A stretch of 64,000 nucleotides of DNA from an uncultured Enterobacteriaceae bacterium (GTDB lineage: Bacteria > Pseudomonadota > Gammaproteobacteria > Burkholderiales > SG8-39). The notes beneath the pieces are model-generated. The model worked only from the letters and a program-made list of their open reading frames with translations. It searched no databases and was not told the origin of the DNA. The stretch lies in contig CAZKHE010000001.1 in NCBI GenBank assembly GCA_964552535.1, forward strand, positions 27,976 to 91,975, written 5' to 3'. Shown in pieces: positions 7,767-59,325 of the stretch; position 1 is the first letter of the stretch, and each line of letters starts with the position of its first letter. The translations under genes were made by a program, and so were the position numbers.

Positions 7767-9947
7767 ATGGCCACCGTGGAGCGAGGCAAGGGCAAGCGCA
7801 AGCAGGTCATCGCAATCGTGCGCCAGGGGAGCGTGCTCCGGCGCAACGAGACGGAGTCGGGCGACCCGCGCCTGACCGGATATCAGCGGTTCGCGACCGA
7901 GGCGGGCGCGGAGGCGGCGCTGCGGAGCGAGATCAAGGCCTGCCTCGCGGACCGCATGCTGCCGGCCGACGAGGAGGCGCGGGCGATCGCCGCGCAGATG
8001 CCCTCGGCGAAGTCCGGGACGGCGGCGCTGCCGGTGCGCACCGACCTCGGGATCGACAACGAAGCGAACGGCTTCGTGATCACCTCACGCAAGCTCGCCG
8101 GCCGGACCATGGAAGAGGGTTCGGCGGAGTGGATGAAGGCGGTGAAGCGCGGCGACATGCTGCCGCTCGAACTGGTGCAGGACGACCCGTTCGTCATCCG
8201 CGTCGTGGCGGGCGAGCCGCTCGACCAGCAGGAGGCCGAGGAATGGGTGGCCCGGGTCGACTGGCATCTCAACGTTCCGGACGGCAAGCTCTGCATCACC
8301 GGCGGCGCCCCGTTCACCACCGAAGGCTACGATGCCGACGACGCGGACGCCGAACGCTACGTCGGCGAGCTCGCGATCCCCAGGGGACGCTACCGGGCCA
8401 CGCTCTACACTTACCTCGACAGCGTCAACGGCGCGAGTGTCATGGACCACCTCGCCGGCGGCTACGGCAAGGGCGAGCCGGTCGAGCAGTGGCGCGCGCG
8501 CACGCGGCCCGATCCGGGCTCCGACGACGGCGACACCGGGGAGCGGGTGGACTTCCTCCTGCACCTCGATCCCGTCGAGGCTGCGCCGACCGCGGGATTG
8601 TCCGCGCTGCCCGAGGGCGGCTGGTTCGGTGCCACCGAGAACGCACACAAGCCCGAGCGCTGCCCGATGGGCCTCGCGGCCCGCGACGTCGTGCGCCCGC
8701 CGGATCCCGAATCCGGCGCGTGGACGTACGTCCACGAGGTGCACCCGATGCTGACGGCCCGGTGGAAGACCGACCCGGGCGCACTCGCGGGCGGCGGCCT
8801 GCTGTCGCTGCCCCTGGCGAGGCTCGGGGACGCCGGACGCATCGCCTGGTTCGCGTCGCGGCAGGTCGCGCACGAGCTGCGGCTGAAGCTCCCCGCGGGC
8901 ACGTCGGTCGATCTCGGCGCCCCCTGGGGCGAGGGCGTGGTGGCGGTCGAGGAGCATGGCGTGGTCCGCGTGCTCTTCTCCGCGGACCTGCACCCGAACG
9001 ACGTCTTCGCGCGTCTGGGTGAGGTGGCCCCGCGCCTCGCGTCGCTGCCGGAGGGCACGATGCTCGATCTGGTCGCCGCCCCGCTCGAGCCCGCGTCCGG
9101 AAGCGCCGAGCGCGCGGGGTGGCTGTGGCTCCGCGGAGCGGTCCGCGATGGAAACTGGCGGATCGCGCGCGCGCATCCGGCGGCCTCGCAGGCGGCGCTC
9201 GACGGGGCGCTTACGCTCGCCGCGGAGATGGCACCCGGCACCGCGATCCGCGTGCGCGACGAAGCCGAGGCACACCGCATCCTCGCGTGGATCGATCGCC
9301 GCTTCCCGGGTCAACTCGACGGCAACGCGGTCCGCGTGACGGGCGACGCGATCACGCTCGGCAAGGCCGGGCCGGCGATCAACATGCTGGGCATCGCCGC
9401 TTTCGCGCTCCGCTTCGAGGACACTTGGCCGGTGAGCGGGCCGGCCGGCGACGACGTGGACGTCGAGCGCGAGGGCGACGACCCCGACGACGACGGCATG
9501 TTCCCCACCTCGCCGATCCAGGGCGCGCTGATCCACACCGCGGCGAGCGGGCGCGCGTGGCATCAGACCATGGCGCTGCTCCTGTCCGAGAAGATCGCCG
9601 ACCGCATCGGGCAGGAACGCAAGGCGCTGAAGAGCGCGGGGTTCCGGGAGCTGGGCGACCTCATGTCGCCGCAGCAGCCCGAGGTCGCGTACCACGGCTT
9701 CATCCGCAAGGACGGATCGGCCTTCGCCTGGTTCCGCGTGTCCTACCCGGACAAGGTCCTGTGCGAACTCGCATCGCCCGCCGGCGGCGAGGTCCTCGTC
9801 ACCACGCAAGCGTCGGACGCCGGCGCCAGCGTCGCCGATCTCGTCGCCCGCCACGACGAGCGGCTGGCTGCACTCGGTGCCGAACCCGGCGCCGCGACGC
9901 TGCTCCGGTTCGCCGAGACGCTCGAACGGATCGCGGGCGGAGCCTAG
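7767..9947 (+). CDS. Large cytoplasmic hypothetical protein (726 aa), no recognised domain
   Basis: ATG at 7767 is preceded by gagggggg. Amino-acid composition is balanced and acidic, unlike the Arg-rich antisense ORF 8085..10535. No signal peptide or TM segment. Confidence 0.6.
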   Translation: MATVERGKGKRKQVIAIVRQGSVLRRNETESGDPRLTGYQRFATEAGAEAALRSEIKACLADRMLPADEEARAIAAQMPSAKSGTAALPVRTDLGIDNEANGFVITSRKLAGRTMEEGSAEWMKAVKRGDMLPLELVQDDPFVIRVVAGEPLDQQEAEEWVARVDWHLNVPDGKLCITGGAPFTTEGYDADDADAERYVGELAIPRGRYRATLYTYLDSVNGASVMDHLAGGYGKGEPVEQWRARTRPDPGSDDGDTGERVDFLLHLDPVEAAPTAGLSALPEGGWFGATENAHKPERCPMGLAARDVVRPPDPESGAWTYVHEVHPMLTARWKTDPGALAGGGLLSLPLARLGDAGRIAWFASRQVAHELRLKLPAGTSVDLGAPWGEGVVAVEEHGVVRVLFSADLHPNDVFARLGEVAPRLASLPEGTMLDLVAAPLEPASGSAERAGWLWLRGAVRDGNWRIARAHPAASQAALDGALTLAAEMAPGTAIRVRDEAEAHRILAWIDRRFPGQLDGNAVRVTGDAITLGKAGPAINMLGIAAFALRFEDTWPVSGPAGDDVDVEREGDDPDDDGMFPTSPIQGALIHTAASGRAWHQTMALLLSEKIADRIGQERKALKSAGFRELGDLMSPQQPEVAYHGFIRKDGSAFAWFRVSYPDKVLCELASPAGGEVLVTTQASDAGASVADLVARHDERLAALGAEPGAATLLRFAETLERIAGGA

Positions 9948-18350: not shown

Positions 18351-19274
18351 TCAACGCACCTGCAGCACCAGCTTCCCGCGCAGATGCCGGGCGTCGCTGA
18401 CCGCGTGCGCCGCACGCGCCTCGGGGAGGGGATAGGAGGTGATTTCGGGGAGGCGGATCGCGCCGTCGCGCACCAGCGCGACCAGCCGCTCCAGATGCGC
18501 ACGATCGCGCCCGACCATCGGGCGCAGCGAGCGCACATCCGCGCGAGGCGAAGGCGGCGCGTTGTTGCCCGACGCAATGAACGCCGCCCGTCCGCCGGGC
18601 CGCAGCACGGCGAAGGACCGCTGCGTCACGTCGCCGCCGACCGTGTCGAACACCGCGTCGAGCCCCGCGAGCTTCTGCGTGAAGTCCTCGGTGCGATAGT
18701 CGATCACTTCGTCGGCACCGAGTTGCCGGACGTAGTCGTGGTTCGGCGCGCTCGCGGTCGTGATCACCCGCGCGCCGAGGTGCCGGGCAATCTGGATCGC
18801 GAAGCCCGCCACGCCGCCCGCGCCGCCCTGGATGAGAACGCGCTCGCCCGGCGCGAGCGCGAGCGTGTCCTCGATCGAGATCAGCGCGGTGAGACCCGCC
18901 AGCGCCAGCGCCGCGCACTGCGCATGCGAGAGCTCGTCCGGCTTGCGCGCGACGATCGCGGCCTTGATCGCAAGCCGTTCCGCGTACGCGCCTTCCTGGC
19001 CGCGATCGCAGACGCCAAAGACGGCGTCCCCGACCTGCAGGCCCGTCACCCCATCGCCGAGCGCAGCCACCACGCCGGAGAAGTCGCGGCCGGGAACGCA
19101 GGGAAGCTGCGACACCGCGCCGTAGCCCCCGGCGCGCAGCTTGGTATCCGCCGCGTTGACGCTTGCCGCGTGCACGTCCACCAGCAGTTCGCCGCGGCCG
19201 GGCTGCGGATCGGACACATCGCCGTACTGGAGCACCTCGGGACCGCCGTGGCGCATGAAGAAGATTGCTTTCAC
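18351..19274 (-). CDS. NADPH:quinone oxidoreductase / zinc-type alcohol dehydrogenase superfamily (MDR) protein
   Basis: GTG start at 19274 (VKAIFFMRHGGPEVL). Nucleotide fold GERVLIQGGAGGVAGFAIQIA. C-terminal GKLVLQV, typical of Qor-like proteins. Confidence 0.85.
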   Translation of the reverse strand: MKAIFFMRHGGPEVLQYGDVSDPQPGRGELLVDVHAASVNAADTKLRAGGYGAVSQLPCVPGRDFSGVVAALGDGVTGLQVGDAVFGVCDRGQEGAYAERLAIKAAIVARKPDELSHAQCAALALAGLTALISIEDTLALAPGERVLIQGGAGGVAGFAIQIARHLGARVITTASAPNHDYVRQLGADEVIDYRTEDFTQKLAGLDAVFDTVGGDVTQRSFAVLRPGGRAAFIASGNNAPPSPRADVRSLRPMVGRDRAHLERLVALVRDGAIRLPEITSYPLPEARAAHAVSDARHLRGKLVLQVR

Positions 19275-19382
19275 CCGTTCGTCCTTGCGAGTCGTTCGGG
19301 ACGCAGGATAGCAGCGCTCGCGCGTGCCAAGCGCTTGATCCAGCTTAAGCTGGCGGGCGGGCGCCCGTCCTATCGTGACAAC

Positions 19383-19994
19383 ATGGGGTATTGTCGTTTG
19401 CCGCTGCTGCTCGCCGTGCTGGCTGCGACGCTTGGCGCGTGCGGCTCCGTGGCAGTCGCGCCGCCCGCGGACGAGGGGCCGCTCTTTCAACGCATCGACG
19501 CACGCGTGGGAACGTCGTACGCCTCCGCGGCCCGACTCGCCTACGTGACCAATCCGCTCATGCGGATCGACGTCGGCCAGTCGAGCGTTGCGCACTTCGA
19601 GAAGGCGTTCGGCGCGATGTTCCGGGAGACCGTGGCCCTGCCCGACTGGCCGCCCTGGCGTCACGAGACGCCGCCGGTGGATGGCGTGATCGAGCTGGAG
19701 CGTGGCGATGCCGAACTGGTCCTCGGCGACGACCTGAAGCGCCCCGACGTGGCGAGCGTGACGTATCGCGTATGCCTGTATGCCGCGGCCGGAACGGAAA
19801 TCCGGTGCTGGACCGCGAGCGGACGGAGCAGCCATCAGCGCCGCATCGGCGAGTGCCTTGACCTGCGTGCCTGTTTCGTGCCGCAGATGGAGATGGCGAT
19901 GCGAGAAGCGATCGCGCTGTTCCTGGTGGAAGCGGAGAAGGATGCCGCCGTCCGGCGATGGGCAGCGGGCCTTTCAGGAGAACGCCGGCCGTGA
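19383..19994 (+). CDS. Lipoprotein, function unknown
   Basis: ATG at 19383 inside shadow ORF 18279..19994. Lipobox TLGAC after a hydrophobic leader. Confidence 0.55.
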   Translation: MGYCRLPLLLAVLAATLGACGSVAVAPPADEGPLFQRIDARVGTSYASAARLAYVTNPLMRIDVGQSSVAHFEKAFGAMFRETVALPDWPPWRHETPPVDGVIELERGDAELVLGDDLKRPDVASVTYRVCLYAAAGTEIRCWTASGRSSHQRRIGECLDLRACFVPQMEMAMREAIALFLVEAEKDAAVRRWAAGLSGERRP

Positions 19995-20647
19995 GCGCAT
20001 GGAGGCGCATCCTCGCGCGGCTCGCGCTCGCGGTCGCAGGGCTGTTGGCGGCGCCTGCGCATGCGCAGTCCTCCGTCACGGTGGGCATCCTGGGCTGGCC
20101 GCTGGACCCAAGCGACACGCTGCATGCGCTGGTGAACGACGTCGAGCAGTGCCTCACGGCGCGCATCACCCAAACGGCGCCGGAAGTGCGCCTCCTGCCG
20201 CAGCGTGACGTGCGGAATGCGCTTTTCCCGCTGCTGGAACCAGCGACTCAGCCACGCGACGAGGCCGCCTTTGCAAGCATGCTGGCGCGGCCCGACGTGC
20301 GCGCCAGGCTACAGGGGCGCGGCGTGCGCTACCTCGTCGTGTTCGCCGGCGGCACGCGCAAGGCCGGCTGGGAGGGCGGCATTCTCTGCGGCGCCGGCAT
20401 GGGAGGCGGCGGTTGCCTCGGCTTCGCCTGGCAGAGCGAGCACACCATGCTCGACGCGGCACTCTGGTCCATCCACGGCGACGCGCCGCTGAGCAGGCAG
20501 GCGGCGAAGGTGGAAGGCACGTCGGTCATGCCCGCATTCGGCCTGCCGATTCCGATCATGGCGCGGACGCGTTCCGAGGCATGCGAGGAACTCGGCACGC
20601 GCCTCGCGAACGCGATTCGAGCCTCGGCAACCAAGCCGCGCGACTAG
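19991..20647 (+). CDS. Secreted hypothetical protein
   Basis: GTG at 19991 overlaps the upstream stop (GTGA). Signal peptide ...LAVAGLLAAPAHAQ. A Gly/Cys-rich segment GILCGAGMGGGGCLG is present. Confidence 0.5.
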   Translation: MSAWRRILARLALAVAGLLAAPAHAQSSVTVGILGWPLDPSDTLHALVNDVEQCLTARITQTAPEVRLLPQRDVRNALFPLLEPATQPRDEAAFASMLARPDVRARLQGRGVRYLVVFAGGTRKAGWEGGILCGAGMGGGGCLGFAWQSEHTMLDAALWSIHGDAPLSRQAAKVEGTSVMPAFGLPIPIMARTRSEACEELGTRLANAIRASATKPRD

Positions 20648-21210
20648 GGCTGTGCGAGCAGGTCGGTCAGCGTGCGCTCGATGTCCGCCGCGAGGCGCTT
20701 GAGGGCCTCGCTCGTCACGCGGGTGATGAGCTCCTCGCTCGGCCAGACGAACGTGCGGTCGGTCGCCGCGGCCGTCACGGCGCGATCGCGACCACCCACA
20801 CGCAGGACCAGCTCGATCTTCGCGTCGATGTCCCAGTAGATCGGCGTGGACGGCGTGGTGATGTCGAACACGCGGATGCCGCACAGGACGGTCTGCGGCT
20901 CGGTCGATCCGCGACGCGCGGCGACCTCGTCCGCCTTGGCCTGCACGATCGCACGAACGATCTCCGGCGCCGGCGGCTGCAGATCGATCTTCCCGAGCGA
21001 TGCCCCGAGCGCCGTCCGTTCCATCGCGGCTTCCCTGCGGATGTCGGTGACTTCGACTTTCACACGCCCCGGCACCGACGCGGCGGCGGGGCCGACGATC
21101 TGCGCGGCGTCGATCCTGATCGGAAGGCCTTCCGGGGGTGCGGTCGAGCAGCCGGCCACGAGGGCCGCGAGCAGGGCGATGACGAAGCGGCCGGCGGGTC
21201 GAGCGAGCAT
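20644..21210 (-). CDS. Lipoprotein (YajG-like guess)
   Basis: Lipobox LVAGC. 188 aa. The beta-rich body resembles the size and layout of the YajG family. Confidence 0.5.
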   Translation of the reverse strand: MLARPAGRFVIALLAALVAGCSTAPPEGLPIRIDAAQIVGPAAASVPGRVKVEVTDIRREAAMERTALGASLGKIDLQPPAPEIVRAIVQAKADEVAARRGSTEPQTVLCGIRVFDITTPSTPIYWDIDAKIELVLRVGGRDRAVTAAATDRTFVWPSEELITRVTSEALKRLAADIERTLTDLLAQP

Positions 21211-21274
21211 GTCGCGACGTAATGGCCAATCGAAAGGAAATCACACATCGGGAAGCATAACGCGGCGTGCGGCC

Positions 21275-22207
21275 TCAGTTCCTGCGGGCGTCAGCCTCCC
21301 AGGTCTCGCCTCCCACTCTCGAAACGAAGAACGAGATCCGGTCACCGGTGATGCGCCCCTCGTACTGATCAATCACGTCCACCCGGGTCTCCGGGTGGCC
21401 GGCCAGCGTCAGCATTGATCGCTTCGTCTTGAACGACACGCGGTCACCCTTGACGCGGCCATCGTAGATCGAGGACTGCCGCCTCAGCCAGTTGTCCATG
21501 ACCAAGTGCGGCGGGTAGTCGACTTCGGTTTCTCCCACGATCGTGTCATCGATCTGGTTGAGCCGGATGACGGTCCGGAAGGTCTTCGGACCCTCCTCGA
21601 TCAACCAGGTGCCGCTCACGACCGCTTGCACTGGTTTCGCTGCATCGACTTTGGGTCTAGCGTCCGGGCGTTGCTGCGAAACGTAGACAGAGGCGATCAC
21701 GACGACCAGCGCCGCAGTCAGTCCCGCGAGCACGGCGCCGATGCCTCGCGCTCCGCGGTCGGATCGAGCCATGTTGGAAGGCGCTGCGGTCCGGGTGGCG
21801 TCGTTCGACCCGCGGTCCATATCGACGAGGGCCTGGATGGCCGCGAACAGCGCCTGACACCCCGGATGTGCGGGATCGCCGTTCCAGTTCATCAGCGATG
21901 CTGCCTGAATGCGCCGGAACTCGAGGGGGAGCTTCACCTCTTCGAGCAAGGCCGGCGCGAGGATACCCCGTTCCGCGCCTGCGCCGGCTTCGTTCCGGAC
22001 CCACGCGGAGGAGACCGAGTGCCGCGACCAGAGAACGACCACGCATCTAGCGTCATCGATCGCTTGTTCGATCTCCCGATCGAACGATTGCCCGACGTGA
22101 ACTCGGCGATCCCACCAGACCGACCACCCGTGCTGCTCCAGCACGCGCGCAAGCGCGTCCGCAACCGCTACGTCCTCGCGCGCGTAGCTGATGAAGATGT
22201 CCGCCAC
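21275..22207 (-). CDS. TIR-domain protein with single TM helix and C-terminal extracytoplasmic beta-rich domain
   Basis: N-terminal bacterial TIR hallmarks: DIFISYAREDVAVA, VWWDRR, CVVVLWSRHSVSSAWVRNEAG (conserved Glu codon at 21989-21991). TM segment GIGAVLAGLTAALVVVIASVYV. The C-terminal domain has an internal duplicated motif Y(D/E)GR(V/I)xGDR(V/I)SF. GTG start. Confidence 0.8.
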   Translation of the reverse strand: MADIFISYAREDVAVADALARVLEQHGWSVWWDRRVHVGQSFDREIEQAIDDARCVVVLWSRHSVSSAWVRNEAGAGAERGILAPALLEEVKLPLEFRRIQAASLMNWNGDPAHPGCQALFAAIQALVDMDRGSNDATRTAAPSNMARSDRGARGIGAVLAGLTAALVVVIASVYVSQQRPDARPKVDAAKPVQAVVSGTWLIEEGPKTFRTVIRLNQIDDTIVGETEVDYPPHLVMDNWLRRQSSIYDGRVKGDRVSFKTKRSMLTLAGHPETRVDVIDQYEGRITGDRISFFVSRVGGETWEADARRN

Positions 22208-22467
22208 GTCCCGTCGCTCCGTCGTCGCCCGGGAGACCCCTGCTCGGGCCCTAGCGTAACTCGGCGCGCCGAGGAACGCAGGACGCGCGCCGAAGATCGG
22301 AATGTGTGTTAGCCTCCCGCTCGCATGATTCTCAAGCAGTGAGCAGTCCCTACCTTCTCCGCCGCAACCCGGCGGCGCCTGCAGTGACCGTCCTTCCTAC
22401 TTGATCATCCCGCCCGTCTGCGCGCCTCGGTCAGGCCGCACCATCGCAATCGAGCAAGGAACGACGA

Positions 22468-22671
22468 ATGTCTACAGGTACCGTGAAGTGGTTCAACGAC
22501 GACAAGGGCTTCGGATTCATCACGCCGGATGACGGCGGCAAGGATCTCTTCGCCCACCACACCGCCATCCAGATGGACGGTTTCAAGTCGCTGAAGGAAG
22601 CGCAGAAGGTCAGCTTCGATGTCGTGCAGGGCGCCAAGGGACCGGCGGCCGCGAACATCCGGGCGATCTGA
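22468..22671 (+). CDS. cspA: Cold-shock protein (CspA family)
   Basis: 67 aa with RNP1 KGFGFI and an RNP2-like motif DLFAHH. A long (~250 nt) upstream leader is typical of csp genes. Confidence 0.95.
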
Positions 22672-22703
22672 AGCCCCGCGCGGCGCACGCCGCGCCCGCA
22701 ACG

Positions 22704-22729
22704 AAAAAGCCCGGTCTCCCGGGCTTTTT
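22704..22729. terminator. Bidirectional rho-independent terminator between cspA and katG
   Basis: aaaaa-gcccgg-tctc-ccgggc-ttttt: a GC stem flanked by an A-run and a T-run, so it can serve both convergent genes. Confidence 0.75.
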
Positions 22730-22753
22730 CATTTTCGGCGCACGCTGTCGCGG

Positions 22754-24964
<2,211 letters not shown>

Positions 24965-49235: not shown

Positions 49236-49501
49236 GCGGGCAGGTCCCCGTCGTCACCGCATCCGATCAGGGAAGCCGCCGCCGCGCCGGCTGCGGGAAC
49301 GGATCGACGGGCTCGTCCCAAGCGGAGCGCTCCCGGCTTGACGAGCCGCCACTCGCCTCGGCCATCTGGCCGACCACGCCCGCTGCTGCGTTGCGTTACG
49401 TTTGCGGAGTTGCGGAGTACGCTGTATACGCGCGACCGGCCATGTCGGTCGCGCCGCTCAGGAAGGACCCGGCTCTCGCCGCACAGCAAGGGAGGCGTCA
49501 G

Positions 49502-51592
49502 ATGTCGAGCGGCAAACCGTTGCCCGGATTCGAGGACCGCGCCCCGCCCGACCGGTATTGCGACCTCATCCTGACCGGAGGCGTCACCAGCGCCATCGCC
49601 TACCCGGGCGCCATCTTCGCGCTCGCCACCGCGTATCGCTTCAACAGCATCGGCGGATCGTCCTCGGGCGCCGGGACCGCCGCGCTCGCCGCCGCCGCGG
49701 AGTACCGCCGCCGTCACGGCTCGCCGGAGGGCTTCCGTCTCCTCCTGGAGCGGACCGCCGAGGTGGCCGACGTGAAGGAGGACGGGAAGACCCTGCTCGA
49801 GTGGCTGTTCCAGCCGGCCGCGGACTGTGGGCGGCTGTTCGCTGCACTGGTGCCCGGCTTCGCCTCGCCGGTCAACAAGGGCAAATTGGTCTCGATGCAC
49901 GTGGCGAAGGTTTACGGCTCACGAGGCCTCGTACTCGCCATTGGCGCTACCGCGACTGCGGGGGCGCTTGCCCACGCCGTTCACGCCCTGCTCGGATGGC
50001 CTGCACCGACGCCAGGGGTACTGACCGGAGCCGCGTTCATGATCGCTTGGGCGCTGTTCGCCCTGTGGCTCGTGTACGTCGACGTGCGGCGCATGGTGAA
50101 CCGCGACTACGGTCTCTGCACCGGATACGAGCGCTCGCCGGGCGCCGCGCAGCCGCCGCTGACCGAGTGGCTGCACGCGCTCATCCAGGAGATCGCCGGA
50201 CGCCGCCCCGACCAAGCGCCCCTGACCTTTCACGACCTCGCCACGGCCCCGGGCTCGCCGCGGGACACGCTGGGCGATGCCAGCCCGCCGGGTGCGGTGT
50301 CGATCAACCTTCAGATGTACACCGCAAACCTGACCCACGGACGGCCGTACGTCTTTCCGCAGGAGCGAACGGGCTCCGCCGGCGCGCACGCGAACGCGCC
50401 GCCGGAGGCGGAGGCGGACGCGCTGTACTTCCGTCCGTGGGAGCTGCGGCGGCTGTTCCCCGCCGACGTGATCGAGCACATGAAGACCGATCCGGTCACC
50501 GGCGCGTCCAATCGCTATGTCGGCAGCGTCGTGCCCGACGAGCCGCGCCGCGAGCGCGCCTTCTGGGAGCACTGGTGGCCATCGTCATCGCCGCGCACCG
50601 CCGACGACGAAGCGGACAACACGCTGTGGCGCCTGCCGCGCGAGCACCTGCCGATCCTGGTCGCAGCGCGCATGAGCATCAGCTTCCCGGTGCTGTTCTC
50701 CGGGGTGCCGCTGTGGGCGATGGAACGAAAGAACCAGAGCCTCGACGCCGATGACGGCCAGCACAACAGGGTCTTCCGGCGTTGCGTCTTCTCCGACGGC
50801 AGCCTCTGCTCCAACTTTCCCATCCATCTCTTCGACAGCTGGCTGCCCGCGTGGCCGACCTTTGGCATCTCCCTGCAGGAGCGCGTCCCGGACCCCGCGA
50901 ATCCCCCGCCTCGTCAACGCCTCTGGAAACGGGCCGCGACGCGGGACGTGACCGTGACCCTGCCCGATGACCATCGCGCCGGCCGGCACAACCGCTGGAA
51001 CAATTTCGACTACGAGCCCGGTGCGAGCGCGCGCCTGTTCTCGTTCGTGAACGCCATGCTCTCGACCACGATGAACTGGAGCGACGCGACGCTCGCGCGC
51101 CTGCCCGGCGTGCGCGACCGTGTCGCGGAGGTCACCCTGGAGCCCGGGATCGGCGGCCTCAACATCCGCATGACGCCCGGGCAAATCCGGAAGCTTGCCG
51201 ACGGTGGCGCCGACGCCGGGGTGGAGCTGCTGAAGCGCTTCGCCGGGCGCGGCCGCACAAGGGCGGGCGAACTCGCCGACGGCTGGAACGAGCACCGCTG
51301 GGTGCGGTTCAACGTGCTGCGCGACAGCCTCACTGCCGGGCTCGCGGGTCTGACGTGGTCGGCCTCGCAGCGGCGTTACGCCAAGCCCATCCGCGAGCTC
51401 ATCCGCGAGGCGACGCGCGAGCCGCCCCTCGCCGGCGACGCCACATCGCAGATTCATGCTGCCCAGGCGGCGGCACTCGAGGCGGTGCTGAACGCACTGA
51501 TGCAGGCGGAGCGCGCGCTCACCCGTCCGACGGTGACCCAGCCGTATGCGCCATCGCCGCGGCCGGCGATGCGCGTGCGGCCGCCACTGTAG
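49502..51592 (+). CDS. Patatin-like phospholipase family protein (long form with hydrophobic insertion and large C-terminal extension)
   Basis: Preferred start is ATG 49502 (SD gggagg); alternatives are ATG 49442 and the track start 49391. Oxyanion region DLILTGGVTSAIAYPG. Nucleophile elbow GGSSSG (Ser codon 49661-49663). Catalytic Asp in FSDGSL (50795-50797). Confidence 0.8.
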   Translation: MSSGKPLPGFEDRAPPDRYCDLILTGGVTSAIAYPGAIFALATAYRFNSIGGSSSGAGTAALAAAAEYRRRHGSPEGFRLLLERTAEVADVKEDGKTLLEWLFQPAADCGRLFAALVPGFASPVNKGKLVSMHVAKVYGSRGLVLAIGATATAGALAHAVHALLGWPAPTPGVLTGAAFMIAWALFALWLVYVDVRRMVNRDYGLCTGYERSPGAAQPPLTEWLHALIQEIAGRRPDQAPLTFHDLATAPGSPRDTLGDASPPGAVSINLQMYTANLTHGRPYVFPQERTGSAGAHANAPPEAEADALYFRPWELRRLFPADVIEHMKTDPVTGASNRYVGSVVPDEPRRERAFWEHWWPSSSPRTADDEADNTLWRLPREHLPILVAARMSISFPVLFSGVPLWAMERKNQSLDADDGQHNRVFRRCVFSDGSLCSNFPIHLFDSWLPAWPTFGISLQERVPDPANPPPRQRLWKRAATRDVTVTLPDDHRAGRHNRWNNFDYEPGASARLFSFVNAMLSTTMNWSDATLARLPGVRDRVAEVTLEPGIGGLNIRMTPGQIRKLADGGADAGVELLKRFAGRGRTRAGELADGWNEHRWVRFNVLRDSLTAGLAGLTWSASQRRYAKPIRELIREATREPPLAGDATSQIHAAQAAALEAVLNALMQAERALTRPTVTQPYAPSPRPAMRVRPPL

Positions 51593-51622
51593 CGAACGTC
51601 GTCCTCCTCGAGGGAGACAGCC

Positions 51623-54600
51623 ATGCAGTTCGAGCTCCAGAACAAGTCGCGCAGCCTGCTCGGCGTGACGGACCTCACCCTGGCCGCCCCCATCAAGCGC
51701 GGACTCATCCCCGCGCTCGACTCGCGCAGCTATGAAAGCCGGCTGCGCGTGCTGCTCAGGACGCTCAGCACGCTGCGCGTGTCCTCGCTGGAAGCCGAGC
51801 CGACGCCGCTGATCGCCGACGCCGTCGACCGCATCCGCGCCATCCACTCGTTCCGCCTGGCCATCGTCGGCGAGGATCAGCGCCAGCTCCTGCTCGCGGT
51901 CGCCTTCGACGGCGGCTGGGAGCCCTACATGCGGCGCATCTGGCGCGATCTCGGGCCGCTGCTCGACGTCATCTTCTGCAACTGCGAGGGCTACCTCATC
52001 TCCCGCGAGCACGTGTTCGCCGAGTACGCGGGATGGGTGCGCCGCGCGCAGGTAGCCACGGAGTTCTTCTACAACGCGAGCCCGCTCACGGTGAGCGACC
52101 TGCATTACCTGCGCGAAGCGGAGCGTCGGCGTCGCGACTGCGGCGCGCCGCCCGCGGCGGTCGGGGACAAGGTCGAGCAGGCAATGCCGGCGCTGACCGC
52201 GCTCTATCGTCTGACGGATCTCTATCCGCCCGCGAGCGCCGGTATCGCGAGCCTGAGCGGTCCGGGTGACGGCGCGTGTCTGCTGCGTGCCGCGCATCAT
52301 CTCCTCCACGATGTCGCCGACGACCTGCGACGTACGGAACCGGCGTCGCGCAACGCACCGGCCGAGCGTGCGGCGCTCGCGTGGTTCAGGCAATCCGACG
52401 CGCAGCCGCCGAGGGAACCGTCCGCCGCCGTGAGCTGGGACCCCAGCCGCGCGCAGGGCGGCATCGTCGAGCCGTACGCCGGGGTGTCGCATGCCTGCCT
52501 GCTGCTCATCGAGTTCGCCGACGAGAAGGGCGCTGCGGCGTTCGTCGGCGACCACACGTCGGGCGTGCTGGGGGCCCTTGGAGCGGCCGACGGCACCGCC
52601 GCCAAGCCGTTCGTCAACGTCGGCTTCACCGCGCAAGGGCTGAAGGTCGCGGGCGTCCCGGCCGGCACGCTGGAGCAGTTTCCCTTCGAGTTCCGCGAGG
52701 GCATGGCCGCGCGGGCGAGCATCCTCGGCGACCTGCACTACAACCATCCGACGCGCTGGACGCTCCCTGAACGCAACTGGCCCGAACGCCCGAGCGACCC
52801 TGCGTCCCGGGTCGAGATGACCTGCGTCCACGCGATCGTGCAGCTCTCGTGCCGCAGCAAGCTCTCCCTCGATTGGGACGACTTCGCCGGCAACGACCGG
52901 CATCCGCTCCGCGCGTTCATCCGGAAGTTCCACGATGACCTGCACAAGGCGGGCGTCCGCATCCTCTCCGTGCAGGCCATGCAGCGCTTCTCAGAGGGGC
53001 CGGAGACCACGCCGCGCGGACACTTCGGCTTTCTCGACGGCATCAGCCAGCCGAGCCTCGAGGGGGGCACCGGCGCGCCGTGGGACCGGTTCAAGGTCGG
53101 CGATCTCTTTCTCGGCCACGAGAATTCGGTCGGCGATGAGCCGGTCACGGGACGGCTCTGGGACGACAGCACGTTCCTCGTCGTGCGCAAGCTCCGGCAG
53201 GACGTGGCCGCGCTCGACGACGCGGTCGCGGGGCTGGGCAGCGAGGCCGCGAAGCTCGCGAAGGCGAAGATGATGGGGCGCCGGCTGGACGGCGAAAATC
53301 TGGTGGATGGCCGCGCGGGCAACGACTTCGACTTCTCGCAGGATCCCGACGGCGGCAAGTGCCCGCTGCAATCCCACATCCGGCGCGCGAATCCGCGCGC
53401 GCTGCGCGACGACCTCGCGACGGTGCCGCGCATCGTCCGGCGCGGCATGTCGTACGGGCCGCGCCGGGTCGAGCCGGGCCAGGCGAGCGAGCGCGGCGTC
53501 GTCTTCATGGCCTACTGCGCCTCCATCGCCGAGCAGTTCGAAGTCATCCAGGCCTGGCTCAGCGGCGGCAACAGCACCGGGGACGGCAGCTACTCCGGGC
53601 TGCGCGACCCGTTCATCGGCGTGCCGCAGCCCGGCGACCCGCACACCTTCGTCTATCGCGACGACAGGGGCAGGGAGGTGCGCCTCCCGCTCGATCCCGA
53701 CCGGCCCTTCGTCAAGCTGGAGTGGGGAGCGTATCTCTTCGTGCCCTCGATCCGCGCGCTGGAGGAGCTGAAGGCGATTGCGAGCGAAGCACCCGGCGAG
53801 GCGTCGGACGGGCGGAGGCAGGGCCAGGCGACGGACAAGCGCGAGAAGGCGCGCGAGCGCGAACGCACCGCGCAGGCGATGAAGGGCGCGGCGGTGATCG
53901 GCCGCCTGCAACTGCTGGAGCAGTTGCAGGGTCCCGAGGCGGCACGCACGCAATGGAAGATCGCTCTGGAGGACGTGAGCGCGCGCATCAGCGGCATGAG
54001 CCAGTTCATCTGGACCGCGATCCGCGAGCACTACGGCGGGACGCTGCGCACACCCTACGGCGTGCTGGTCGGCAGCCGTGCGCTGGTGATGCAAGTCTTC
54101 GACAACCGGGGCGATCTCTACTCGGTGCAGGGCTATGCCGACCGCATGAAGCAGTCGTTCGGCGAGATCTACCTCGGCATGGATCGCCTCGCGTACGCGC
54201 GCAGCGTGGCCGGCAACGTGAACGAAGCCCTCATGGCGGTCACGGAGCACGAGGCCTTCGAGTCCGCCCGGCACGTGACCGGCGACGTCGTGCGGCGCCT
54301 CGTGCCCGCCGGCGACGAGGCGACCATCGAGGTGAAGGACCTGGTCGACGAGGTGCTGGCAGCCCTCAGCGCGAAATGGTTCGGAATCCCCGATCCCGGA
54401 GGATCGTACGTCGTCTCCGGCGGCTGGCACTGGAGGGGCCCCAATGAGCTTCCCACGTGCCCCGGCCACTTCCACTCCCCGTCGCGCTACATGTTCCAGC
54501 CCGATCCCGGCACCGAGGCCAGCGAGGCCGGGCAGCGTCACGGCCAGGCGCTGTACGCAAGCGTGAGGGCGTTTGTCGACGCGCATCGCGGCGCGCGTAC

Positions 54601-55180
54601 GAGGCCGCAGGCCCCGCTCGGCAAGGCGCTGTTCGAGGCCATTCCCGGCGACTCGCCCGACGAGCGAAGCCTCCTCGCCAGCACGCTGATCGGCGTGATG
54701 ATGGGCTTCCTGCCGACGGTGGACGGCAACCTGCGCGGGCTCTTCTACGAGTGGATGAACGACCGCTCGCTGTGGGACCACGAGGGTGCGTATCTCGCGG
54801 CGGACGGCCACGGCGCCCATGCGCGCGCCCACCGCGCCCTGCTGGGGCCCCTGCGCCGGACGCTGCAGCTGCGGCCGGTGCCCGAGGTCGTCTGGCGCAT
54901 CGCGCTGAAGCAGCACCGGCTCGGGACGGTGACCATCGAGGAAGGCGAGACGGTCGTGGTCGGCATCGTGTCGGCGATGCAGGAGGCGCGCCTCGACGAC
55001 GTCGACGACGTGTATCCGGTGTTCGGCGGCAACCGCGGCGCGAAGCCGCATCCGCTGCACGCCTGCCCGGGCTACGCGATGGCGATGGGCGTCATGCTCG
55101 GGGTGGTGGCGGGACTGCTGGAGGCGGCACGGCCGCGGCCCACGCTGTCGCCGTTCGCGTTGCGGATGGCGCGCCGCTAG
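51623..55180 (+). CDS. 1185-aa multidomain haem protein: unknown N-terminal domain + DyP-type peroxidase + P450-like (Cys-ligated) C-terminal domain
   Basis: SD gggaga precedes the ATG. DyP motifs: QGGIVEPY, GHFGFLDGISQP (Asp codon 53036-53038), VVRKLRQDV, CPLQSHIRRANPR (proximal His codon 53375-53377), RIVRRGMSYG, VVFMAYCASIAEQFEVIQ. The C-terminal ~390 aa show a P450-like K-helix/meander (LRRTLQLRPVPEVVWRIALKQHRLG..IEEGETVVV) and a Cys-pocket FGGNRGAKPHPLHACPGYAMAMG (Cys codon 55064-55066). Confidence 0.75.
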   Translation: MQFELQNKSRSLLGVTDLTLAAPIKRGLIPALDSRSYESRLRVLLRTLSTLRVSSLEAEPTPLIADAVDRIRAIHSFRLAIVGEDQRQLLLAVAFDGGWEPYMRRIWRDLGPLLDVIFCNCEGYLISREHVFAEYAGWVRRAQVATEFFYNASPLTVSDLHYLREAERRRRDCGAPPAAVGDKVEQAMPALTALYRLTDLYPPASAGIASLSGPGDGACLLRAAHHLLHDVADDLRRTEPASRNAPAERAALAWFRQSDAQPPREPSAAVSWDPSRAQGGIVEPYAGVSHACLLLIEFADEKGAAAFVGDHTSGVLGALGAADGTAAKPFVNVGFTAQGLKVAGVPAGTLEQFPFEFREGMAARASILGDLHYNHPTRWTLPERNWPERPSDPASRVEMTCVHAIVQLSCRSKLSLDWDDFAGNDRHPLRAFIRKFHDDLHKAGVRILSVQAMQRFSEGPETTPRGHFGFLDGISQPSLEGGTGAPWDRFKVGDLFLGHENSVGDEPVTGRLWDDSTFLVVRKLRQDVAALDDAVAGLGSEAAKLAKAKMMGRRLDGENLVDGRAGNDFDFSQDPDGGKCPLQSHIRRANPRALRDDLATVPRIVRRGMSYGPRRVEPGQASERGVVFMAYCASIAEQFEVIQAWLSGGNSTGDGSYSGLRDPFIGVPQPGDPHTFVYRDDRGREVRLPLDPDRPFVKLEWGAYLFVPSIRALEELKAIASEAPGEASDGRRQGQATDKREKARERERTAQAMKGAAVIGRLQLLEQLQGPEAARTQWKIALEDVSARISGMSQFIWTAIREHYGGTLRTPYGVLVGSRALVMQVFDNRGDLYSVQGYADRMKQSFGEIYLGMDRLAYARSVAGNVNEALMAVTEHEAFESARHVTGDVVRRLVPAGDEATIEVKDLVDEVLAALSAKWFGIPDPGGSYVVSGGWHWRGPNELPTCPGHFHSPSRYMFQPDPGTEASEAGQRHGQALYASVRAFVDAHRGARTRPQAPLGKALFEAIPGDSPDERSLLASTLIGVMMGFLPTVDGNLRGLFYEWMNDRSLWDHEGAYLAADGHGAHARAHRALLGPLRRTLQLRPVPEVVWRIALKQHRLGTVTIEEGETVVVGIVSAMQEARLDDVDDVYPVFGGNRGAKPHPLHACPGYAMAMGVMLGVVAGLLEAARPRPTLSPFALRMARR

Positions 55181-58100: not shown

Positions 58101-58266
58101 CGTCGCGGAACGCGGTGCGCACCTCGTTCAGCATCTCCGCGTACGTCTCGGCCTCCATCGCCCCCGAGAGGTGGGTGGAGTCCGAGAGGTCGGTGAACAG
58201 GATGGTCAGGTGACGGCGCTGCTCGGCATCGAACAGCTCGTCTTTCGGATCCGGATGGGCGGGCAT
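55177..58266 (-). CDS. Class-III nucleotide-cyclase-like domain + AAA/STAND P-loop ATPase + TPR-repeat protein
   Basis: ATG at 58266. Cyclase-like N-domain (LTILFTDLSDST, FQGDGLQAVFG, GIHSGVV). Walker A SAPPGVGKT, Walker B VLFIDDWHWAD. The long C-terminal region is Ala/Leu-rich TPR-like repeats. No HTH was recognised. Confidence 0.85.
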   Translation of the reverse strand: MPAHPDPKDELFDAEQRRHLTILFTDLSDSTHLSGAMEAETYAEMLNEVRTAFRDAVARHGGAINQFQGDGLQAVFGFPHATEHDGRRAVEAALAVHAAVRLLRIRYAQQGAPDLSVHSGIHSGVVLAREGDNVAGRVEIFGPGPGIAKHLSDVAEADEILVSEETLGPGSHLFETAQRRFVTLKGRAEPLAIHRILGRMPLRTRFEAHARRGLVPFVGRHEELAWLQRALDGAIAGRARFVAVSAPPGVGKTRLAEEFLQRFAAPVCTVSRGYCGGDLSAEPLQPFLQMLRARFGLVPGMSPAAAAQAIEAGLGEIDAGLLAYRTELMTALSVHPEAPGTAEPRRSAPEQTLAAVREVFAALARLRPQVLFIDDWHWADDATRQVVYAIRDLGNVPVLLLVATRPPELGDVELTGADHLALAPFSAAEADATIGELLPAADPFVAGEIRRYSGGNPLFIEELCHAVARAGPSAGLDPVRGGPAWLETLIESRVARLPRDQAHVLSAAAVIGNVVPTWLLERLTGCGEDHLWVRALAAQDLVFAGEANGTLRFKHGITRDVVYGAVGLQKRRAMHREIAKLIQADARAGDEADACEALAYHFAGAGEYAEATRYAATAGDKAMAASSIDAAKAQYGAALGMLDRLAASAERYQAWRSIVRRLGLATVFDPSRAELAIFHRAVARAREHGDAAGEAYAEYWLAYVNYALGESRAAVEHCELAVRAATVLGDQRLAAQARATLGQALAAAADYGGALALLDDTTRLRRDRETETRPSPGLAYALACKASVLGDLGRFPEAMACFDDALACLPWRGHEVEGSVLCWRSGVNLWQGRWEAARQDSAAAQAIAERVRSLYLFAMSRGLGAYAAWHGTRDPRLLQDMAEAATWLESRDKNLFVSLVHGWLAEALATAGQPAEARRQAARALRRVRKRDWFGGAMACRAMARLQAAAGDWRAAERHLRRAERVARTRSSPHETACNDLAAAEIALARGDRDGAAAGVERASAAFESMRMHWHLAQAARLRAQFQPR

Positions 58267-58403
58267 CGGTCGATCCACCTGAGGGGCGCGGGGAGATTGT
58301 GTGCCCCTCCCGGGGGCTGCGCAACAGCCGGGGACGGCCCGCCGGTGGAACGCCGGTGCGGGACTTGCTGCACCATCACCCTCTCCGCGACCCACGGAGC
58401 ACC

Positions 58404-59261: not shown

Positions 59262-59325
59262 CAGGTGCGCGGCGGACGCGCCGGCGCAGGGCATTCGGAA
59301 TCGTCGGCCGCGCGGGCGGCGCGCT

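Follow-up and report, generated by a model that had tools for sequence, protein, structure and literature searches.

The 64-kb window analysed here (the whole stretch of 64,000 nucleotides) contains a gene for a TIR-domain protein, and raises the question of what a protein with a transmembrane (TM) helix and a further domain behind its TIR domain does for the bacterium that carries it: does it couple an event outside the cell to NAD+ cleavage inside, or does it serve in some other way?

An Intact Gene, Probably Acquired Horizontally

The gene is intact, and its limits and start were placed as follows.

21275-22207, reverse strand: complete coding sequence of 310 amino acids, from the open reading frame list, stop codon (21275-21277) included.
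22205-22207, reverse strand: GTG start codon, read from the sequence, giving an N-terminus co-linear with the family N-termini MAD[IV]FISYA.
22217-22220, reverse strand: putative Shine-Dalgarno sequence GGAG, 9 nt upstream of the GTG, from sequence reading only.

The GTG start had been proposed in the first-pass annotation of this DNA, and it is backed by the position of the GGAG and by the N-terminus of the protein, MADIFISYA, which agrees with that of the family. The identical protein was found once in NCBI-derived data (as P0001), its 90% cluster has one member only, and with 310 residues it is among the shortest members of the TIR-TM family described below.

The composition of the gene sets it apart from its surroundings. 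Its GC content is 0.647, the mean of the window being 0.713 (z = -2.8), its GC3 is 0.797 against 0.914 ± 0.027 in 29 genes of the window, and its CAI-like codon-adaptation index lies at z = -3.7; moreover, no 933-nt stretch of the window is lower in GC than the one that starts at 21199. The A/T-richer islet noticed in the first-pass annotation is thus real for the TIR gene, but the low-GC stretch (approximately 21200-22800) also takes in cspA and intergenic DNA, and within it aberrant codon usage is confined to the TIR gene. The codon-usage check suggested there, in which GC3 and the CAI-like index were compared, came out against normal usage.

Among the annotated neighbours are genes for lipoproteins, cspA, katG, a TonB receptor, PepSY_TM, LysR, a quinone oxidoreductase and an acyl-CoA synthetase, i.e., a housekeeping neighbourhood and not a defence island. 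None of these neighbours is a ThsA, Ago, STING or SAVED-type partner, and the earlier statement that no partner gene is adjacent stands, both by the annotated neighbours and by curated models. No tRNA is found in the 64-kb window, and neither an integrase nor meaningful flanking direct or inverted repeats were found; the DNA that separates the TIR gene from the lipoprotein gene shows no consensus for a promoter or a terminator.

The distribution of the gene was followed through the neighbouring lipoprotein, which is conserved. Five related metagenomic loci (L019, L020, L023, L026 and L027) lack the TIR gene at the syntenic position upstream of the lipoprotein gene, which is the outcome, for these loci, of the presence/absence comparison that had been proposed. 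Contig L018 also carries the lipoprotein, but was left out, since its DNA is 100% identical and it therefore represents the same organism, with no presence/absence information. KatG is 82-85% identical to hundreds of proteins, the named ones alphaproteobacterial, and its contexts are unrelated; it is too conserved to be of use in finding syntenic genomes. Overall, the outlying GC3 and CAI, the lowest-GC stretch, the single-member 90% cluster and the absence from five syntenic loci indicate that the TIR gene is an accessory one and was probably acquired horizontally.

A TIR Domain with a Catalytic-Type Glutamate

The N-terminal part of the protein matches known TIR domains over most of its length.

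21833-22207, reverse strand: TIR domain, residues 1 to ~125 (Pfam TIR_2 match at residues 4-109).
21989-21991, reverse strand: codon of Glu73 in the motif W-V-R-N-E, predicted catalytic glutamate by alignment with PdTIR (WPQKE), BtTIR and AbTIR (W..YE).

The match to Pfam TIR_2 (PF13676) spans residues 4-109 with a score of 86 bits (cut-off 28, E = 3.6e-24), and Pfam PF01582 (TIR) is also above its cut-off (28.7 versus 21.3). Glu73 aligns with the glutamate of PdTIR, BtpA, BtTIR, AbTIR and SARM1, and is invariant in the family alignment A4, so that a bacterial TIR domain with its conserved glutamate at 21989-21991, as first annotated, is confirmed. The family TIR profile matches AbTIR, BtTIR, PdTIR, BtpA, TIR-STING, RUN1 and SARM1. 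The query protein shares 53-62% identity with family members over the TIR domain, has the family signature GWSVWWDR...VVVLWS...S.WV..EA...PLEFRR.Q...L..W, and carries the family residue at 48 of the 49 TIR positions conserved at >=90%, which points to strong purifying selection on the domain. For the protein as a whole, an AF2 model from the single sequence reached a pLDDT of 44 and is not usable for the TIR part. By alignment, we assign the domain as a bona fide TIR with a catalytic-type glutamate, and it would be expected to be enzymatically active.

The closest solved relatives are the NAD+-cleaving bacterial proteins AbTIR (of Acinetobacter baumannii), BtTIR and PdTIR (PDB 7uxu/8g83, 7uxr and 3h16; profile E-values of 2e-10 to 2.5e-9), with which the query has in common the βA box D-x-F-I-S-[HY]-A-x-x-D, the glycine of the BB-loop and the glutamate of W-x-x-x-E, in an alignment of low identity that extends no further than about residues 3-82 of the query. 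These proteins differ from the query in being soluble, in having their TIR domain at the C-terminus, behind a coiled coil or other region, and in lacking both a TM helix and an ectodomain. The family profile aligns with SARM1, the animal NAD+ hydrolase, over the whole domain (positions 3-121, catalytic glutamate included), but with an E-value of only ~1e-4, and in SARM1 regulation falls to ARM and SAM domains, not to a transmembrane ectodomain. The activation of SARM1 by induced TIR-TIR assembly provides a mechanistic template.

We also compared the protein with known TIR-based defence systems. Thoeris, CBASS, SPARTA and retron-TIR were rejected, because the matches are confined to the TIR core and far below cut-offs, and partner genes are absent. 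In the case of Thoeris, the NCBIfam ThcB4 model gives 36.5 bits against a cut-off of 220, the PADLOC ThsB models match the TIR core only (E = 1e-6 or worse), and no ThsA-type gene (SIR2, Macro, SLOG) is adjacent; Pfam ThsB_TIR reaches 24.7 bits (cut-off 21.2). As for CBASS/Pycsar, PADLOC SAVED_TIR is covered only at profile positions 14-87 of 404, its TIR part, the C-terminal domain is predicted to be a calycin-like barrel and not SAVED, STING or CNB, and there is no adjacent CD-NTase. The SPARTA model Aga_TIR (PADLOC) is matched in its TIR core alone (positions 5-80 of 430), and no Ago gene was found.

These comparisons bear on the possibility that the protein belongs to a split system, in which the product of the TIR domain is, as in Thoeris, a cADPR isomer or an ADPR conjugate, and the effector is encoded elsewhere in the genome; the TIR gene would then be the sensor half. 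AbTIR and BtTIR, the closest solved relatives, do produce cADPR isomers, and the weak matches to ThsB-type TIRs (PADLOC ThsB and Pfam ThsB_TIR) point in the same direction. However, the ThcB4 score is far below its cut-off, and a ThsA-like gene is absent both from the 64 kb inspected around the query and from six contexts of family members, and we regard a split system as unlikely.

Membrane Topology

Behind the TIR domain, a linker, one hydrophobic segment and a short spacer were delimited.

21746-21832, reverse strand: cytoplasmic linker between TIR domain and TM helix, residues 126-154, whose length, though not its sequence, is conserved.
21677-21745, reverse strand: single TM helix, residues ~155-177, GIGAVLAGLTAALVVVIASVYVS, by Kyte-Doolittle hydropathy.
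21632-21676, reverse strand: short spacer 3' of the TM helix, residues 178-192, QQRPDARPKVDAAKP, unaligned in the family.

The 19-residue Kyte-Doolittle maximum of the TM segment is 2.53, and no other segment exceeds 1.4, in agreement with the one TM helix placed earlier at about 21680-21745. The helix begins 87 residues after W69, the family median being 84 (interquartile range 82-88). A TM helix is present in 108 of the 120 nearest relatives, and in 96 of these 108 it lies at a median of 84 residues (interquartile range 82-88) past the WxxxE motif. In these 96 proteins, lysines plus arginines around the TM helix amount to 3.65 on the N-terminal side versus 1.77 on the C-terminal side; the N-terminal side is the richer one in 84, both sides are equal in 10 and the order is reversed in 2, as the positive-inside rule would have it for a cytoplasmic TIR domain. 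Among barrel-bearing proteins, the N-terminal side is richer in 16 of 18.

The query's own flanks are neutral (3 versus 3) and thus uninformative, so the topology rests on these family statistics and on the general rule that a 150-residue N-terminal domain lacking a signal peptide stays cytoplasmic. In addition, two distant copies of the barrel (P0142 and P0157) have signal peptides. The orientation given in the first-pass annotation, with the TIR domain in the cytoplasm and the C-terminal domain outside it (type II, N-in/C-out), is therefore well supported. In P0148 and P0159, the TIR domain is joined straight to the barrel with no hydrophobic segment between them, so the barrel is apparently also able to work in the cytoplasm.

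A Predicted Calycin-Like β-Barrel

The C-terminal domain had been described as a repeat domain of ~130 residues, and proved shorter (~118 residues).

21278-21631, reverse strand: predicted calycin-like up-and-down β-barrel module (AF2 and Foldseek), residues 193-310, predicted extracytoplasmic.
21431-21466, reverse strand: β-hairpin motif 1, YDGRVKGDRVSF, residues 248-259, from the repeat score, with a G-D turn between two barrel strands.
21329-21364, reverse strand: β-hairpin motif 2, YEGRITGDRISF, residues 282-293, from the repeat score, the counterpart of motif 1 in the second half of the barrel.

An AF2 model of the module, built from a 26-sequence alignment, reached a pLDDT of 95.2 and a pTM of 0.85, with lower pLDDT in its first block. 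Foldseek searches against the PDB gave SAHS/FABP/CRBP proteins, a lipocalin and avidins as best matches (best TM-scores 0.59-0.62), with probabilities of ~1.0 but E-values of 8e-3 or worse and rmsd of 4.5-12 Å. As modelled, the module would resemble calycins (avidins, lipocalins, FABP/CRBP, SAHS) in being a small up-and-down antiparallel β-barrel, and it differs from them in belonging to none of their sequence families. Its first strand carries an invariant G-x-W (alignment A2), which we take to recall the SCR1 motif of lipocalins. The C-terminal domain is, by this model, one calycin-like (avidin/lipocalin/FABP-type) up-and-down β-barrel.

The ungapped BLOSUM62 score of the motif pair YDGRVKGDRVSF / YEGRITGDRISF is 52, against 25 ± 3.3 (maximum 40) in 500 shuffles, none of which reached it. 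In the AF2 model, motif 1 corresponds to strands 56-65 and 68-78 and motif 2 to strands 87-99 and 102-109 (module numbering), and the two copies are predicted to be two equivalent β-hairpins of the barrel. In alignment A2, F259, T261 and G284 are invariant and Y282 nearly so, and the query keeps all invariant barrel positions. Hence the duplication of the motif holds, but the repeat array gives way to a single predicted barrel.

Sequence searches placed the barrel in no known family. Neither Pfam nor NCBIfam, lipocalin, avidin and FABP models included, matched the barrel of the query, no family of these collections was common to more than one of the 26 barrel relatives at E <= 10, and a profile search of the PDB gave nothing below E = 0.15. 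When the C-terminal domain alone was used in a word-index homology search, no match came up; the relatives came from an exhaustive HMMER search, by which the barrel is rare (35 representative clusters among 1.84 billion proteins). An NCBIfam anti-sigma factor model (NF052375) spanning the TM helix and part of the barrel was rejected, as it scores 17.6 bits against a cut-off of 100 and is absent from all 26 barrel sequences. The models and searches suggest that the barrel is a compact new β-barrel fold family, previously undescribed.

The barrel usually lies between the TM helix and a WD40 propeller, which follows it in approximately 20 of the 28 barrel-bearing proteins examined; in one relative (P0134), a trypsin-like peptidase takes the place of the TIR domain. 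This mostly membrane-proximal position means that the barrel may be an adaptor or oligomerisation element rather than a sensor, and in the query, which lacks the more obvious sensor that the propeller would be, it may be only a stalk or oligomerisation module. The protein would then be anchored and oligomerised constitutively, with the membrane pre-concentrating the enzyme and the TIR domain triggered from the cytoplasm, e.g., by a phage protein or by the state of the membrane. Avidin-like barrels form dimers and tetramers, and the best matches of the barrel by TM-score are the oligomeric avidins shwanavidin, wilavidin and zebavidin (0.57-0.62); the variants P0148 and P0159, without a TM helix, likewise suit this alternative, as does the report that TIR defence systems of E. 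coli interact with components of the phage (PMC11350192). Nevertheless, we consider it rather unlikely, because barrel-only architectures occur independently, both in proteins ending with the barrel (the query P0001, P0126 and P0128) and in TM-barrel proteins (P0135, P0137, P0147, P0150 and P0155), and because a part outside that had no specificity would make it difficult to account for ectodomains so hypervariable on a TIR-TM unit that stays constant.

It could also be argued that the query is left over from a TIR-TM-barrel-WD40 receptor by decay or truncation and has no current function. Its nearest full-length homologue (P0002, 43% identity) runs on into WD40 repeats, and the query ends as soon as its last barrel strand is complete, with 64 bp left to the next gene. 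Such decay is very improbable, given the intact reading frame, the conserved TIR and barrel positions that it retains, and the recurrence of the barrel-only architecture in unrelated metagenomes (P0126 and P0128).

A Large Family with Variable C-Terminal Domains

The TIR-TM family to which the query belongs has at least several hundred members (704 matches among 8,000 scored candidates) and combines a constant TIR-linker-TM unit with highly variable C-terminal domains: WD40, TPR, Sel1, FGE-sulfatase, MORN, PG_binding and DUF4263, in addition to many without a Pfam match. In the literature consulted, no bacterial TIR-TM-ectodomain family was found described, nor biochemistry of any TIR-TM member. 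Judged from its sequence, the query is a member of a large uncharacterised bacterial family with a layout like that of an inverted Toll-like receptor.

The likeness to Toll-like and IL-1 receptors lies in the logic of a protein that crosses the membrane once, where ligands are bound outside and the TIR domain lies inside, and in the use of repeat ectodomains (WD40, TPR, Sel1) by the wider bacterial family. In contrast to these receptors, the query has its TIR domain at the N-terminus and is of type II instead of type I, with a calycin-like barrel in place of LRR or Ig domains; moreover, its TIR domain has the enzymatic-type glutamate, whereas TIR domains of Toll-like receptors classically act as scaffolds. 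There is no evidence for common descent of the two architectures.

A precedent is found in E. coli, where single-protein TIR systems (TIR-V, -VI, -IX and others; Nat Commun 2024) protect against phages by abortive infection and depend on the catalytic residue, one new system having TM segments (PMC11350192). Compared by description only, they are stand-alone and without a conserved partner, like the query, but none is described with a folded periplasmic domain, and the same survey remarked that TM and ectodomain features of the Toll-like type are seemingly absent from bacterial TIR systems (PMC11350192). In addition, conflict-system proteins with an N-terminal effector (TIR, caspase or trypsin) and a highly variable, possibly extracellular, TM-bearing C-terminal region have been described (Kaur, Burroughs, Iyer & Aravind, eLife 2020/2021; PMC8195603), a pattern that matches the constant effector and variable C-terminus of the present family. 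Those systems are centred on NTPases (STAND, MoxR-vWA) and encoded by several genes, while the query has no linked NTPase or adaptor.

Six genomic contexts of family members were sampled, and no conserved neighbour gene was found across them. Three are rich in conflict genes, the first with SLATT, patatin and TIR-iSTAND genes, the second with a type III-A CRISPR system and a Schlafen-like gene, and the third with CHAT, caspase-TIR, Fic and IS66 genes. The other three consist of housekeeping or two-component genes, and in one of the relatives (L032) the TIR gene overlaps a response-regulator gene by 8 nt. Together with the surroundings of the query itself, the latter contexts could indicate a housekeeping or physiological role, e.g., envelope-linked turnover of NAD+ or NAD-capped RNA, or stress signalling; bacterial TIR proteins are reported to be able to decap NAD-RNA (PMC10937652). 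We hold such a role to be quite improbable, since the distribution of the gene is patchy, its codon usage is foreign and it is missing from syntenic loci, and since the ectodomains are hypervariable and CHAT, caspase, SLATT and CRISPR genes lie alongside in other genomes.

A Possible One-Component Sensor-Effector

Altogether, the preferred reading is that of a stand-alone, one-component transmembrane sensor-effector of the conflict or abortive-infection type, to which, as regards activity, cue and defence role, we give roughly even chances. There is good support for the architecture and topology of an inner-membrane protein with a cytoplasmic enzymatic-type TIR domain, a linker of ~30 residues, one TM helix and a small, predicted periplasmic calycin-like β-barrel. 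An extracytoplasmic event may alter the oligomeric state of the ectodomain; as a consequence, the cytoplasmic TIR domains would gather and complete their composite active sites, and NAD+ cleavage dependent on Glu73 could lead to growth arrest or cell death. Besides the propeller that most relatives have behind the barrel, the housekeeping surroundings of the query and of three of the six family contexts speak against this sensor-effector, as do the phage and plasmid collections, in which there were no relatives among 50,697 phage records and one weak plasmid match (a 1.8-Mb replicon of Novosphingobium).

More tentatively, we can imagine that the family as a whole represents a widespread, uncharacterised class of bacterial "Toll-like" single-pass receptors, with an enzymatic TIR domain inside and a quickly swapped periplasmic sensor (WD40, TPR, Sel1, FGE-sulfatase or, here, a calycin-like barrel) that would trigger NAD+ depletion upon attack on the envelope. 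Possible cues are phage adsorption or ejection machinery, periplasmic predators, and damage by bacteriocins or the T6SS, and the depletion would come before, or be independent of, cytoplasmic sensing. The barrel might then serve this signalling alone, as a new domain for ligand binding or clustering.

To our knowledge, the bacterial TIR immune proteins known so far sense a cytoplasmic event or receive a nucleotide signal. The query protein is short and its barrel compact, so that topology mapping, NADase assays and the search for ligands could conveniently begin with it. Should this reading of the family hold, bacteria would also link extracytoplasmic recognition to TIR signalling, and its members would provide small, single-gene and readily testable models of that link.

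Domain organization and topology of the TIR protein

The TIR gene comprises the following features:
21275-22207, (-), open reading frame of 310 codons with a GTG start
9 nt upstream of that GTG, (-), GGAG sequence
21989-21991, (-), codon of Glu73, within a W-V-R-N-E motif

The reading frame and its GTG start are present exactly as called in the first-pass annotation, and the start is taken as correct because the N-terminus, MADIFISYA, is co-linear with the MAD[IV]FISYA of dozens of homologues. The proposed bacterial TIR domain with its conserved glutamate was recovered as a Pfam TIR_2 match on residues 4-109 (86 bits against a cut-off of 28, E=3.6e-24), and both pairwise and profile PDB searches aligned Glu73 with the glutamate of PdTIR, BtpA/TcpB, BtTIR and AbTIR; in the profile search, SARM1 could also be aligned across the full domain. 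Moreover, a single hydrophobic segment was found at residues ~155-177 (19-residue Kyte-Doolittle maximum 2.53), with no other segment above 1.4 over the whole protein in the same window size, as expected from the one TM helix claimed.

A search of 5.8 billion clusters, in which 8,000 candidates were scored, returned 704 hits, hereafter the TIR-TM family. At least one TM helix is present in 108 of the 120 best matches, and in 96 of these 120 the distance from WxxxE to the helix is nearly constant (median 84 residues, IQR 82-88). Across MAGs of Proteobacteria, Bacteroidota, Acidobacteriota and Gemmatimonadota, 49 TIR positions are at least 90% identical, and our protein retains 48 of them; judged by its sequence, it is an enzymatic-type TIR under strong constraint. 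That it could be a decaying remnant seems very improbable. The region following the helix is highly variable in the family (WD40, TPR, Sel1, FGE-sulfatase, MORN, PG-binding and DUF4263 domains were found), most of these C-terminal regions having no Pfam match at all.

To place the two halves relative to the membrane, Lys and Arg were counted over the 15 residues flanking the TM helix. The family mean is 3.65 on the TIR side versus 1.77 on the C-terminal side, with an excess on the TIR side in 84 proteins, equal counts in 10 and the reverse in 2 (n=96), which by the positive-inside rule indicates a cytoplasmic TIR domain and a variable domain outside. Additionally, a 150-residue N-terminal domain lacking a signal peptide is expected to remain inside the cell. 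Since the flanks of our protein are themselves neutral (3 versus 3), we assign its topology from the family and from this general rule; we regard the architecture and the orientation originally assigned, with the TIR inside and the C-terminal domain outside, as very probably right.

The C-terminal domain as a predicted calycin-like barrel

The first-pass annotation described the C-terminal region as a repeat domain. The duplication stood: the 12-mers YDGRVKGDRVSF (residues 248-259) and YEGRITGDRISF (282-293) have an ungapped BLOSUM62 score of 52, attained in 0/500 shuffles (25±3.3, maximum 40). The AlphaFold2 model of residues 193-310, built from a 26-sequence alignment and very confident (pLDDT 95.2, pTM 0.85), contains eight β-strands and one short helix, and the two motifs correspond in it to equivalent hairpins of strand, G-D turn and strand (model strands 56-65/68-78 and 87-99/102-109), so that the supposed repeat domain appears to be a single barrel with internal pseudo-symmetry. 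The top Foldseek matches in the PDB were all calycins, namely tardigrade SAHS, FABP/CRBP, the bacterial lipocalin HP1028 and avidins, with probabilities of ~1.0; because E-values are modest (at least 8e-3) and TM-scores reach only 0.62, the modelled barrel is called calycin-like at the fold level only. Its first strand carries an invariant G-x-W, which resembles the lipocalin SCR1 motif. No Pfam or NCBIfam model matched the barrel, and a PDB profile search gave nothing under E=0.15. Just 35 proteins containing it emerged (E<=1e-3) when 1.84 billion representatives were searched exhaustively with HMMER, from which we infer a rare, undescribed domain family.

Architectures that include the barrel
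TIR-TM-barrel: the present protein, P0126, P0128
TIR-TM-barrel-WD40 propeller: P0002 (nearest full-length relative of the present protein), P0127, P0129-P0132, P0141
The same layout with a second, AbTIR/PdTIR-like TIR type: P0131, P0136, P0139, P0140, P0158
TM-barrel ± WD40: P0135, P0137, P0143, P0144, P0146, P0147, P0150, P0152, P0155
Trypsin-like peptidase-barrel-WD40: P0134
Distant signal-peptide proteins with tandem barrel copies: P0142, P0157
TIR-barrel without any hydrophobic segment: P0148, P0159

Among 18 proteins with a clear TM helix ahead of the barrel, 16 have more Lys and Arg on the N-terminal side, which normally puts the barrel outside the cytoplasm and close to the membrane. 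It usually precedes the propeller, and the joining of a barrel-WD40 cassette to two TIR types and one peptidase reads, from these sequences, as typical effector swapping. The prevalence of WD40 downstream of the barrel in relatives, together with its avidin-like structural matches, favors the main alternative to a sensory role, in which the barrel would be merely a stalk or oligomerization module and the trigger would lie elsewhere; we consider this unlikely. From the 'IGQLLPPAP' junction onwards, P0148 matches the TM-anchored P0144 almost exactly, suggesting either a recent exchange of TM anchor for TIR domain or a chimeric assembly.

The TIR gene is an accessory insertion

As the first-pass annotation had noticed by eye, the gene is less GC-rich than its surroundings (64.7% versus 71.3% for the window), and no 933-nt stretch anywhere in the 64 kb has a lower GC content than the one beginning at 21199. 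Codon usage departs likewise: GC3 is 0.797, versus 0.914±0.027 (minimum 0.857) in 29 window genes called with confidence, and a codon-adaptation index trained on them places the TIR gene at z=-3.7. The low-GC stretch runs to ~22800 and includes cspA, whose codon usage is ordinary for the genome (0.664 versus 0.727±0.062); thus, only the TIR gene looks foreign within it. The protein is the only member of its 90% cluster, and its nearest full-length relative is just 43% identical.

Three envelope proteins without Pfam match adjoin the gene (~19380-21210):
~19.4-20.0 kb, (+), lipoprotein
19958-20647, (+), secreted 229-aa protein
20644-21210, (-), 188-aa lipoprotein

The 188-aa lipoprotein gene lies directly downstream of the TIR gene, on the same strand and after a 64 bp gap. 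The lipoprotein has a match in 11/11 metagenomic loci, and in 7/11 it belongs, with two other envelope proteins, to a block kept at 63-75% identity. Its convergent pairing with the secreted protein is retained at 63-75% identity in L019-L025, and the first lipoprotein has counterparts in L019 and L023. In none of the five loci reaching far enough (L019, L020, L023, L026, L027) does a TIR gene stand upstream of the 188-aa lipoprotein, and the genes found there vary, which marks the TIR gene as accessory DNA inserted where synteny breaks. Aberrant codons and absence from these five loci are the opposite of what would be seen if the gene were part of the conserved core and used codons normally. 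No tRNA, integrase or flanking repeat was found as a vehicle.

Genomic surroundings

No ThsA, SIR2, Macro, SLOG, Ago, STING, SAVED or cyclase partner was found near the TIR gene, in line with the earlier reading, and no neighbor is conserved across six family members on long contigs. Three of these lie among conflict genes: SLATT, patatin, TIR-iSTAND and other TIRs (L012); type III-A CRISPR-Cas and a Schlafen-like ATPase (L015/L016); and CHAT, caspase, caspase-TIR, Fic and IS66 (L034). The other three (L013, L032, L033) lie amid housekeeping or two-component genes. The family is therefore 'stand-alone', with an apparent, partial association with conflict loci. A split, Thoeris-like signaling system is quite unlikely, and a physiological role outside conflict is more doubtful still. 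TIR-TM relatives are nearly absent from plasmids, and none occurred in 50,697 phage records.

In L032 (6421-8293), the family gene encoding P0034 comes after a PAS-histidine kinase gene and shares 8 nt with the end of a response-regulator gene, which hints that some members are wired to two-component systems.

Further observations concern the window itself. An Rfam cspA thermoregulator match (RF01766, 22377-22733, (+), 73.7 bits, just below the gathering score of 78, E=1e-17) covers the 5' UTR and coding sequence (22468-22671) of the cold-shock gene, so the region upstream of the TIR gene (22208-~22376) is divergently common to cspA. Between convergent cspA and katG, a 23-nt inverted repeat at 22692-22741 (GCGCCCGCAACGAAAAAGCCCGG / CCGGGCTTTTTCATTTTCGGCGC, 83% complementary, 4-nt loop) is probably a bidirectional terminator, unflagged by a simple terminator scan. 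A mechanical 494-aa reading frame at 18351-19835 (-) has its ADH_N and ADH_zinc_N matches within residues 213-491; the real product is probably a quinone oxidoreductase of ~325 aa initiated from an internal ATG. On the other strand, the conserved lipoprotein gene overlaps the 5' part of this frame. The 726-aa frame at 7767-9947 (+) has a typical coding GC3 of 0.92 and no Pfam match at E<=1e-5. Large conflict- or signaling-type genes run through 49391-63992, 27-40 kb from the TIR gene:
49391-51592, (+), patatin-like protein, 733 aa
51623-55180, (+), 1185-aa protein with a Dyp-peroxidase C-terminal domain
55177-58395, (-), adenylate/guanylate cyclase-AAA_16 (STAND-like)-TPR protein, 1072 aa
60750-63992, (-), CHAT (caspase-like) protein, 1080 aa

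Proposed working and relation to known systems

TIR NADase sites are completed through TIR-TIR assembly, as in SARM1, plant TNLs, AbTIR, TIR-SAVED and TIR-STING. In our protein, an extracytoplasmic event would change how the barrel oligomerizes, the TIR domains would then come together on the cytoplasmic side of the membrane, and the assembled domains would cleave NAD+. We hold the chances of this full sensor-effector and defence reading to be evenly balanced. Single-protein TIR systems mediate abortive-infection defence in E. coli and need the catalytic residue, one new system having TM segments (PMC11350192); by analogy, these would be closest to the predicted working of our protein.

The original observation stands, and its interpretation is supported in part. 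The protein belongs to the TIR_2 family and, as far as in silico tests go, has the hallmarks of an enzymatic TIR. Thoeris, CBASS, SPARTA and retron-TIR were rejected, as their defining features were tested and not found in it. Its layout resembles a Toll-like receptor in inverted form. In prokaryotic conflict systems, effectors joined to a variable sensor region that is sometimes extracellular have been described as a general concept (PMC8195603). Our literature search, incomplete in its coverage, returned no account of the TIR-TM-ectodomain family or of the barrel. We read the protein as a putative TIR effector whose membrane topology class and ectodomain family are both new. Overall, the gene is one small orphan, yet it gives entry to a large family that bears on the question of whether sensing outside the cytoplasm is linked to TIR signaling in bacteria.
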